Shown one piece after another: positions 40,265 through 42,201 of a stretch of DNA of 64,000 bases. Position 1 is the first letter of the stretch. Every line of letters starts with the position of its first letter. The stretch lies in IMG/VR virus record IMGVR_UViG_3300035047_000196. One strand, 5' to 3'. This DNA comes from a virus. The position numbers and the translations under genes were made by a program. Under the pieces are notes generated by a model, which ran no database searches, had not been told where the DNA came from, and saw nothing but the letters and a program-made list of their open reading frames with translations.

Positions 40265-40821
40265 AGGTTACAGAATTTCAAGCAAAGGTAGCTGTAGAAT
40301 CTCTACTGGCATTTGCAGGAGAAGATGTTAAAAGAGAAGGTTTACTTAACACTCCAAATAGAGTTGTTAAAATGTATGGAGAACTTTTCTCAGGATACCA
40401 AAAGGATCCGGCTGACATCATGACTGTGTTCGAGGATGGAGCCTGTGATGAGATGGTGGTGCTTCGTGACATCGAATTTTATTCAATGTGTGAACATCAT
40501 GTCCTTCCTTTCTTTGGAAAGGCTCATATTGCATATATTCCCGATGGGAAGGTTCTTGGGATCAGTAAACTGGCCAGGTTACTTGATATCTATTCAAAGA
40601 GGATGCAAATTCAAGAACGTATTGGTCGTCAAGTTACGGATGCTTTGATGAAGTATCTAGAACCAAAGGGAGCTGCTTGTGTCATAGAAGCGCAGCATCT
40701 TTGCATGCTGTGCAGAGGTGTCATGAAGCAGAACAGCGTTATGGTCACCAGCAGCCTGTCCGGAGTCTTTCTGCACAAAGAAGGGCCCCGTGAAGAGCTC
40801 CTCAAATTGATTCATCCATGA
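40261..40821 (+). CDS. folE: GTP cyclohydrolase I
   Basis: [35 protein letters not shown]. Confidence 0.95.
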
Positions 40822-40973
40822 AGATTTTTTTCGCAGGTGGAGTTCTAGTTTTGGATGAGTCCAGAGAACTCATGATGAAGCATCGACTCTTGTCCTATCA
40901 CACGATAATACAACAAAAGATAGGGACCAAGTTGTGGAAATGGATTGTGGGACAATTGAGGAGTGAGCGATGA
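40818..40973 (+). CDS. 51-aa mini-protein resembling the DpdA N-terminal module (not in ORF track)
   Basis: MKIFFAGG...HRLLSYH; ATGA-coupled to folE and dpdA. Confidence 0.7.
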
Positions 40974-42028
40974 ATATATGGATAGCTGGAAATACAGGAA
41001 TTGAACAAAGGGAAAGCATGGTGCTGAGTTTGAAGGGGCAGCGGTTGATGTCGTACTATTTCATCGCTATCGATTTCTTCAATTGTCAGAAAATGCTTCA
41101 TGTATTGGAGGAGCAGATGAAGAAGCAAAAGGATCCAGAAGTTGAATTATTTCTCGACTCAGGAGCATTTAGTGCGCACACACAAGGAGTTAAGATTGAT
41201 CTGGATGAGTATATTCAATTCATCAAAGAACATGAGGACGTTATCTCTGTCTATGCTAACTTGGATGTGATTAGAGATGCTGAAGCCACCTTGGAAAATC
41301 AAACAAGAATGGAAGAAGCAGGTTTATCTCCATTGCCCTGTTTTCACATTGGAGAACCTTTGAGGTATCTGAAGAGGTACATTGATGAATATGATTACAT
41401 TGCCATAGGTGGAATGCTTGCTATAGGAACAAGCTCTGACGTTGTCGCCAAAACATTGGACAGCATCTTCTCTGAATATATTTGTGATGAAAATGGGATA
41501 CCGAAAGTCAAGGTTCATGGATTCGGATTGACTTCATTGAAGTTGATGTGTCGGTACCCATGGTACAGTGTGGACTCGACTTCGTGGATTGTTACTGGCC
41601 GTATGGGAAGTGTGTACGTTCCAAAGCCCTGGGCGCACGCTCTGGACGATTGTTGGAAAATCTGTGTTAGCACAAGAAGCCCAAGCAAGAAGCAGGCCGG
41701 CAAACATATCGACACACTTCCACCTGGTCAATTACAGCATGTTCTTGATTACTTTGAATCAAAGGGATTTGTTCTAGGAAAATCTAAGTTTGTCAAAAGA
41801 AAGGCTGGTTACAAGCCAAAGAAAAATGAACGTCCGACAGGCAAAGTTAAGAACAAGAAATTAGCCGTAGATCAAGAAGTGGAAGTGCTTGTAGAACCTG
41901 GTCTCTGTAACGATTACAGGGCTAGAGATCAACTCAATGTGATGTATTTCAGAGACCTCGAAAGAGCAATGCCAGAATGGCCTCAGCCATTTACTGCTGT
42001 TCAATCCAAAGAAGGATTTGACATATGA
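40970..42028 (+). CDS. dpdA: DpdA, tRNA-guanine-transglycosylase-like DNA deazaguanine transglycosylase
   Basis: LFLDSGAFS, YANLDVI, PCFH, YIAIGG, VHGFG, SVDSTSW; next to folE/queD/queE. Confidence 0.85.
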   Translation: MNIWIAGNTGIEQRESMVLSLKGQRLMSYYFIAIDFFNCQKMLHVLEEQMKKQKDPEVELFLDSGAFSAHTQGVKIDLDEYIQFIKEHEDVISVYANLDVIRDAEATLENQTRMEEAGLSPLPCFHIGEPLRYLKRYIDEYDYIAIGGMLAIGTSSDVVAKTLDSIFSEYICDENGIPKVKVHGFGLTSLKLMCRYPWYSVDSTSWIVTGRMGSVYVPKPWAHALDDCWKICVSTRSPSKKQAGKHIDTLPPGQLQHVLDYFESKGFVLGKSKFVKRKAGYKPKKNERPTGKVKNKKLAVDQEVEVLVEPGLCNDYRARDQLNVMYFRDLERAMPEWPQPFTAVQSKEGFDI

Positions 42029-42201
42029 AGATTTATCTAGCAGGTGCTCCACCGGGCAAATGTGTTCTAGATGAAACCAAAATGGTATTGAAAAAACATC
42101 CGAGAATGCTCTTGTCCTATCATTTCGTGTCAACAGATCAACTACAACAAAAAGTCGTATTTGAAGAAGTGATGATTCCATTAACAAGGAGGAAAAAATG
42201 A
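42025..42201 (+). CDS. 58-aa mini-protein resembling the DpdA N-terminal module (not in ORF track)
   Basis: MKIYLAGA...RMLLSYH; ATGA-coupled to dpdA and the clamp gene. Confidence 0.7.
   Translation: MKIYLAGAPPGKCVLDETKMVLKKHPRMLLSYHFVSTDQLQQKVVFEEVMIPLTRRKK

Follow-up and report, generated by a model that had tools for sequence, protein, structure and literature searches.

Free-standing copies of the DpdA N-terminal module flank dpdA in a viral DNA fragment and recur in related phage loci: candidate alternative subunits of a split barrel

The subject of this study is the gene dpdA and its immediate flanks in a 64,000-nucleotide stretch of viral DNA (IMG/VR record IMGVR_UViG_3300035047_000196; hereafter, the window). 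DpdA is a DNA 7-deazaguanine transglycosylase, and its gene is bordered on either side by a small open reading frame (ORF), mini1 upstream and mini2 downstream, each of which encodes a free-standing version of the N-terminal module of DpdA itself (Table 1). Free modules of this kind are a feature of the family across hundreds of uncultured phage contigs and not a peculiarity of one genome. With moderate confidence, we propose that mini1 and mini2 act in trans as alternative N-terminal subunits, closing the barrel of a headless DpdA, i.e. of a core lacking its own N-module. More tentatively, DpdA could be a modular enzyme in which a six-strand core takes up interchangeable quarter-barrels that set the guanine contexts to be modified, with (AG)n switching of subunits in relatives leading to variable modification.

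Both small ORFs are homologous to the N terminus of DpdA

The original prediction, which was made from the sequence of the window alone, held that both small ORFs match the N terminus of DpdA, and profile searches placed these matches well above chance. We built a hidden Markov model (HMM) solely from the N termini of nine long-form DpdAs, the window's own included, and ran it on all six-frame ORFs of the window and of 82 other loci. Across the 64 kb, this model returned only three matches, namely mini2 (expectation value (E) 1.4e-9), mini1 (E 7.4e-5), and DpdA itself; E for mini1 ranged from 7.4e-5 to 4.8e-8. When compared by hhalign with the profile of the DpdA family, the subfamilies of mini1 (97.9%, E 3.5e-13) and mini2 (96.6%, E 5.6e-10) were both aligned to DpdA residues 1–52, and the pattern M(K/N)I..AG ... 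L.SY is common to the aligned N termini of mini1, DpdA, and mini2.

Both small proteins match from position 1 of the module model and show the marks by which we define the family: a start Met followed by the β1 motif (K/R)I(Y/F)(L/F)A(G/A/S/T) in a protein of 45–75 aa, the β2 motif RL(L/F/M)S(Y/F) ∼20–30 residues after β1, and a location on the dpdA strand within ∼2 kb of a dpdA core; both minis abut dpdA. mini1 aligns with the upstream-type minis of relatives and has 40 small homologues in public data; mini2 is a divergent member of a subfamily that we call B. That the two mini-genes are also similar at the DNA level was borne out only locally: they share one identical 14-mer (CTCTTGTCCTATCA) and their first 9 nt, but overall nucleotide identity between them is just 53%. 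The two proteins have 19 identical residues, 13 of which are specified by the same codon.

The module corresponds to the first quarter of the predicted barrel

The 352-aa dpdA ORF matches PHROG 887 ("queuine tRNA-ribosyltransferase"; E 7e-57) and has more than 5,000 homologues, including hundreds of the DpdA type. Its AlphaFold2 (AF2) model, with a predicted local distance difference test score (pLDDT) of 92, is a (β/α)8 barrel of the tRNA-guanine transglycosylase (TGT) type, and Foldseek searches with this model returned bacterial, archaeal, and human TGTs at the top and the DpdA structure 7ui4 at rank 20 (probability 1.00, TM about 0.42). Residues D63, S64, and G65 as well as D202 and S203 are invariant both in 21 and in 71 homologues, and the catalytic DSG(A/G)F and (V/F)DS motifs are present. 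As regards the CxCxxC...H structural zinc site, there is no CxCxxC in the window's DpdA and no invariant cysteine in the family alignment; to judge from the sequences, the missing motif lowers the identity with bacterial DpdA and not that with the phage DpdA group (phrog_887).

The original prediction had placed the shared segment in the first strands of the TGT barrel, in agreement with the AF2 model, in which residues 1–52 contain β1 (2–6), α1 (12–21), β2 (24–28), a short helix (29–33), and α2 (39–52), followed by β3 (59–63) with the DSG aspartate D63. According to this model, the module is the first quarter, β1-α1-β2-α2, of the (β/α)8 barrel of DpdA. Across 195 modules, information content peaks at β1 and β2 and is low in between.

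Free modules recur beside dpdA in related viral loci

Whereas a scan of viral contigs with a single protein found no relative, an alignment-based scan did, and 80 viral contigs were fetched with a DpdA alignment; counts given below refer to 80 unique loci. A module-only model was used for counting; an iterated HMM with extended segments had strayed into the beginning of the core, giving false "fused" matches at −21 to −9 nt. All 226 module matches over the 80 loci are on the dpdA strand and none is on the opposite strand. With a stricter model, 179 free-standing copies with a median length of ∼57 aa were obtained, 148 of them with the ATG precisely at the first position of the model, and most module copies are ORFs of 45–75 aa. 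A search for a similar arrangement in other dpdA loci had been suggested as a check with the original prediction; in these related viral loci, at least one free module is present in 67 of the 78 that could be scored, and the number of free modules per locus in the studied clade runs from 1 to 6 or more. In L001, the closest relative (59% identity in DpdA), four such mini-ORFs surround dpdA. In another locus (L002), DpdA is without the N-module, a module ORF lies immediately upstream in a different frame, and several more lie downstream.

The modules fall into subfamilies that are recognisable across phages whose DpdA cores share just about 50–60% identity. Subfamilies A (MKIYLATWL...), B (MKIYLAATAPGNE...), and C (...MNVKGRERE...) were never N-terminally fused to the core in the loci studied; module types D and E are core-fused in some phages and free in others. 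Small proteins of type B form 208 clusters in public collections, all unnamed or labelled "hypothetical" except for one odd label. Searched exhaustively with HMMER, 1.84 billion representatives gave 165 B-type matches, the best 150 of which are nearly all 33–117 aa long and match from residue 1.

In two ORFs, P0121 (117 aa) and L016:4038-4265, two modules stand in one reading frame (B+D and B+A, respectively); these possibly represent quarter-barrels in tandem or neighbouring mini-genes that are read through. A separate observation concerns the closest relative, in which a pyrimidine-dimer glycosylase-like gene (PF03013; L001:4478-4801) lies between two upstream mini-genes.

The small proteins are under purifying selection in relatives

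Between orthologous minis of different loci, the proportion of differing synonymous sites (pS) is 0.6–1.0, i.e. saturated, and that of nonsynonymous sites (pN) is 0.2–0.3, and at 60–81% their amino acid identity is as high as, or higher than, that of the DpdA core in the locus pairs concerned. Because synonymous sites are saturated while the proteins are conserved, neutral remnants are excluded, and the minis are, on this sequence comparison, real and conserved small proteins under purifying selection. The window's own minis are both called genes on the oil-field contig L086, which is identical to the window across 4,968 bases, so there is no within-species variation from which their ratio of nonsynonymous to synonymous rates could be derived.

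Headless cores, natural fusions, and complex prediction

In 22 loci a stop codon lies ≤26 codons upstream of the core, so β1 and β2 are absent from the core. Free modules are present in 20 of these 22 headless-core loci, in several of them downstream only. In two further proteins, P0402 (434 aa; L087:3001-4305) and P0358 (303 aa; L088:193-1104), a headless core carries a B-type module at its C terminus, and no further module was found in these two loci. Because β1 and the last strand are neighbours in the barrel, such fusions are plausible as circular permutations. In the AF2 model of P0402, β2 and α2 of the module have pLDDT values of 88–94, and the predicted template modelling score (pTM) is 0.82.

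We then predicted the complex of the window's N-truncated DpdA (residues 50–352) with mini2, which is another check that had been proposed at the outset. The interface score (ipSAE) was 0.89, 0.89, and 0.80 in three runs, compared with 0.00 for the best control; the control with an unrelated 306-residue protein scored 0.00. In the calibration of the tool, 58 of 80 solved complexes and 2 of 110 mismatched pairs attained this mark. The partner had a pLDDT of at least 53, and the runs shared at least 37% of contacts. Predicted contacts join mini2 residues 27–33 to core residues 60–65 and mini2 residues 2–6 to core residues 199–203.

Thus, protein-level complementation, one of several roles that the original prediction had offered for the minis, is in line with selection, with headless cores served by free modules only, with the two fusions, with the occurrence of types D and E in both fused and free form, and with the complex prediction and its controls. 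Overall, these sequence comparisons and models support free modules as protein-level partners of DpdA.

A candidate internal start in dpdA

The window's dpdA encodes a cis module of its own. Within the gene, the ATG of Met50 and the GGAGG that precedes it (Table 1) are at the same position where natural headless (short-form) DpdAs begin, and Met50 is a putative initiation site for a headless core isoform of 303 aa. Among the long forms, 23 of 30 have an ATG 3–16 codons before the core, compared with an expected 32% (p 5e-7), and a Shine–Dalgarno (SD) match of at least 5 nt accompanies this ATG in 10 of the 23, compared with a background of 3.5% (p 2e-9). Free modules accompany 21 of the 23 long forms with this ATG and 2 of the 7 without it (Fisher p 0.003).

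Exchange of modules and repeat tracts in relatives

Four near-identical contigs (L025, L028, L034, and L077) have cores that are 98% identical. Between L025 and L028, the A-type mini is just 61% identical, from which it follows that the module has been exchanged. In the same four contigs, the B-type mini (∼4644-4862) has a synonymous substitution rate (dS) of 0.08–0.13, compared with 0.55–0.73 for the adjacent core in the same pairs, which suggests recent spread by recombination.

In eight loci (L006, L010, L022, L051, L025, L028, L034, and L077), the core and its own N-module are in different frames, the shift being at an RERE-encoding (AG)n tract; these tracts precede the core by about 100–150 nt, as at L077:3472-3490. 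Among the near-identical contigs, they measure 17 nt in L025 and in L028, 19 nt in L077, and 11 nt in L034. Moreover, (AG)n tracts of at least 5 units in the 80 loci are concentrated in the modules, where 40 of 43 fall in the initial 120 nt of coding sequence, a portion that accounts for 4.2% of the DNA. No (AG)n tract of at least 5 units was found in the window between positions 36001 and 47000, so repeat tracts of this kind are a trait of the relatives. There, they look like phage phase variation and are candidates for it; assemblies cannot prove it.

Proposed mechanism

Homology, selection, the natural split and fused forms, and the position of the module in the barrel were all computed, and it is on these that the following mechanism builds. 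A DpdA core without its first quarter would be an open six-strand barrel. In the window, translation from the internal SD/ATG at Met50 would yield such a headless core; many relatives encode it as a separate headless gene. In the assembly that we infer to take place in vivo, β2 of a free module would slot beside core β3, the strand of the catalytic DSG aspartate, and β1 would slot beside the last barrel strand, thereby closing the barrel. The strands are conserved, and the β1-α1 and β2-α2 segments, which define the subfamilies, are predicted to sit on the catalytic, DNA-facing side. Holoenzymes would therefore differ on the catalytic side according to whether they contain mini1, mini2, or the cis module, and because the modules differ on this face, the preference for DNA context is probably altered. 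The likeliest consequence would be another DNA-context preference for the guanine to be replaced and, hence, a wider set of protected sites.

Several points weigh against this proposal. In the complex prediction, mini2 and the segment removed from DpdA are homologous, mini2 was placed at the site of that segment, and alignments of our own were used, so the scores speak for compatibility and not for binding; the prediction covers mini2 of the two minis. The window's DpdA keeps its own cis module and would need free ones only where the Met50 isoform is produced or its own module can be displaced. The internal ATG and SD are possibly a relic of past gene fusion, and the Fisher test of this ATG against free modules ignores relatedness. 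The 17 runs in which the sequence occurs are all DNA from oil-field metagenomes, with no RNA run among them. Above all, retargeting of DNA specificity by the modules is plausible as an inference only: the cultured relatives with mapped motifs (Iggy, PaMx25, and BcepGomr) have no free modules by HMM, so no known motif can be tied to a module.

Alternative explanations

The main rival holds that the small proteins are regulators and not specificity subunits, i.e. that they bind the headless core or compete with the cis module as assembly chaperones, dosage or timing controls, or dominant-negative caps that change the activity of DpdA and not its choice of target. Evidence of the binding type (the complex prediction, the headless cores, and the fusions) serves this explanation equally well, (AG)n tracts that would turn single modules on or off in relatives fit regulation as well as they fit retargeting, and types A, B, and C were never found N-terminally fused to a core. 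However, headless cores accompanied by free modules only need a module for a complete barrel, which would make the module, in those loci at least, an integral component of the functional enzyme, and the presence side by side of several conserved subfamilies with distinct loop motifs is hard to reconcile with dosage control alone. We therefore regard a purely regulatory role as unlikely, albeit the most serious competitor. Less probable still is that the modules are barrel-strand mimics directed at another target, such as the TGT of the host or a bacterial DpdA-type defence enzyme, and act as anti-defence or takeover peptides. As small, early-region, translationally coupled phage proteins they would suit such a role, and homology to a conserved barrel element could permit intrusion into related host barrels. 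Yet they are strictly linked on the same strand to phage dpdA in 67 of 78 scorable loci, headless phage cores need exactly the piece that the module represents, natural fusions connect the module to the phage core, and the unrelated 306-residue control protein scored 0.00.

We give very little credence to either of the two remaining explanations. The idea that the minis are functionless, decayed remnants of a partial dpdA duplication or cassette replacement could draw on their short length, on their position at gene borders, and on some frameshifted copies in relatives; the original prediction had named unconserved remnants of this sort as the outcome that would overturn it. We rejected this candidate on the grounds of selection, intact frames, and orthologous subfamilies: 148 of the 179 copies have an open frame with ATG at the first model position, amino acid conservation equals that of the enzyme core at saturated synonymous sites, and the same subfamilies are recognised across diverged phages. 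Equally remote is a role as recombination donors, which had likewise been offered at the outset and in which the mini-genes would be DNA cassettes for gene conversion of the dpdA 5′ end. A repeated 5′ motif (ATGAAGATTT...GCAGG) and the 14-nt block identical between mini1 and mini2 could be read in this way, and A-type minis that differ between near-identical phages show exchange between genomes. Against this, the minis have 40–52% nucleotide identity to the dpdA 5′ end with no long identical tract in the window, each is equipped with start, stop, and coupling signals of its own, it is the protein that is under selection, and types A, B, and C were never at the dpdA 5′ position in the loci studied.

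Relation to known systems

Trans-acting N-terminal subunits of DpdA, as we propose them, have partial parallels. In lacZ α-complementation and in engineered split TIM barrels, a truncated enzyme regains its function when a small N-terminal fragment is provided in trans. These are laboratory constructs with a single fragment, whereas the DpdA split is natural and conserved and has several alternative fragments side by side. Type I restriction-modification systems with their HsdS subunit, and phase-variable mod/hsdS genes, join a catalytic core to interchangeable specificity subunits, and the likeness to the DpdA modules lies in the one core, the interchangeable small subunits, and, in the relatives only, simple-sequence repeats in the subunit genes. 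HsdS, however, is a separate DNA-binding protein without homology to the module, which is predicted to be an integral quarter of the catalytic barrel and whose role in specificity is putative. TGT-family enzymes of more than one polypeptide are also known, namely the eukaryotic heterodimer QTRT1/QTRT2 and the split archaeosine TGT; these join whole barrels or domains, whereas the DpdA barrel is cut between α2 and β3.

The phage DpdA1 group (BcepGomr gp31, Iggy, PaMx25, and CAjan) is of the same family as the window's DpdA (37–40% identity), has the same gene order of preQ0 genes, folE, dpdA, clamp, and polymerase, and replaces G in short specific motifs (PMC10484667, PMC7544227). Iggy modifies GA only, and CAjan modifies GA and GGC (PMC10484667, PMC7544227); motif specificity is thus a real property of DpdA1 enzymes. 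DpdA-type enzymes shield phage DNA from restriction and Cas9 (PMC10484667, PMC7544227). The cultured phage DpdA1 enzymes are single polypeptides, with no free N-modules by HMM, in contrast to the free modules, headless cores, and interchangeable forms of the clade studied here. DpdA of Salmonella Montevideo (PDB 7UI4) and TGTs have a TIM barrel and a catalytic Asp after β3, as does the window's DpdA. In the Salmonella enzyme, an insertion at β1/α1 extends the DNA-binding surface, and one at β2/α2 lies alongside the active site (PMC10164549). Bacterial DpdA, a monomer, acts together with the ATPase DpdB and has the CxCxxC...H zinc site, and no split barrel has been described for it; the window's DpdA has no such cysteine motif. 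The original prediction knew of no description of an arrangement like the present one, and our literature search likewise found none of a split DpdA or of free DpdA N-modules.

If the modular reading is true, DpdA would represent the first case in nature of a TIM-barrel enzyme whose barrel quarters can be swapped, and phages would have a new way to diversify anti-restriction DNA modification. The core-plus-module design offers a testable handle on the choice of short motifs by DpdA, in that a 50-aa module can be swapped and the motif read, and the split DpdA offers a natural complementation system. A naturally split (β/α)8 barrel closed by alternative quarters is also relevant to the long-standing view of smaller β-α units as the origin of TIM barrels. 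For annotation, hundreds of 50–70-aa "hypothetical" phage ORFs gain an identity, and "truncated" DpdAs of ∼298 aa should not be written off as broken genes.

Gene order, annotation, and minor observations

The coordinates that the original prediction gave for the two mini-genes agree exactly with the ORF list, and the translational coupling that it described is present throughout, all four junctions (folE/mini1, mini1/dpdA, dpdA/mini2, and mini2/clamp) being ATGA start-stop overlaps. Its description of the two ORFs as unannotated needs qualification: public gene callers do predict both as genes, mini1 being protein P0252 on 8 contigs. Scans of Pfam and PHROG matched neither mini1 nor mini2 to a family. 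A megablast search of the region against 50,697 phage records gave no match. A scan for promoters and terminators between these genes found nothing convincing, which fits one operon and is not evidence for one.

Table 1. Features of the dpdA locus in the window
Feature	Position	Strand	Basis
folE (GTP cyclohydrolase I), upstream gene	40261..40821	+	PF01227 E 8e-70; stop overlaps mini1 start (ATGA)
mini1, 51 aa, free-standing DpdA N-module, upstream type	40818..40973	+	ORF; β1 MKIFFAG, β2 RLLSYH
dpdA, long form, 352 aa, DNA 7-deazaguanine transglycosylase, TGT-type TIM barrel	40970..42028	+	phrog_887 E 7e-57, homologues, AF2, Foldseek
Cis N-module of DpdA, residues 1–52	40970..41125	+	AF2 secondary structure, alignments
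Candidate internal start: GGAGG 41107-41111, 5-nt spacer, ATG 41117-41119 (Met50)	41107..41119	+	Sequence
DpdA core, residues 50–352, from β3 with D63 in LFLDSGAFS to C-terminal GFDI	41117..42028	+	Alignment invariants, complex prediction
mini2, 58 aa, free-standing DpdA N-module, divergent subfamily B member	42025..42201	+	ORF, HMM, alignment, complex prediction
Phage sliding clamp (DNA polymerase processivity factor), downstream gene	42198..43223	+	phrog_947 E 3e-33; start overlaps mini2 stop (ATGA)

Upstream of these genes, the preQ0 cluster of the window includes, with FolE, genes for QueD (PTPS) and QueE (radical SAM). QueC was not detected in this cluster, and its place is occupied by a CN_hydrolase (nitrilase-fold) gene at 39230-40264, where L001, the closest relative, and L002 carry QueC (PF06508). 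Nearly all DpdA homologues end in G-F-(G/D)-(L/I), and the window's DpdA ends in EGFDI (42011-42025); the nitrilase-fold protein likewise ends in GGFDI. To judge from the sequences, the G-F tail shared by DpdA and the nitrilase-fold protein, both adjoining the clamp gene, may be a clamp-binding tail.

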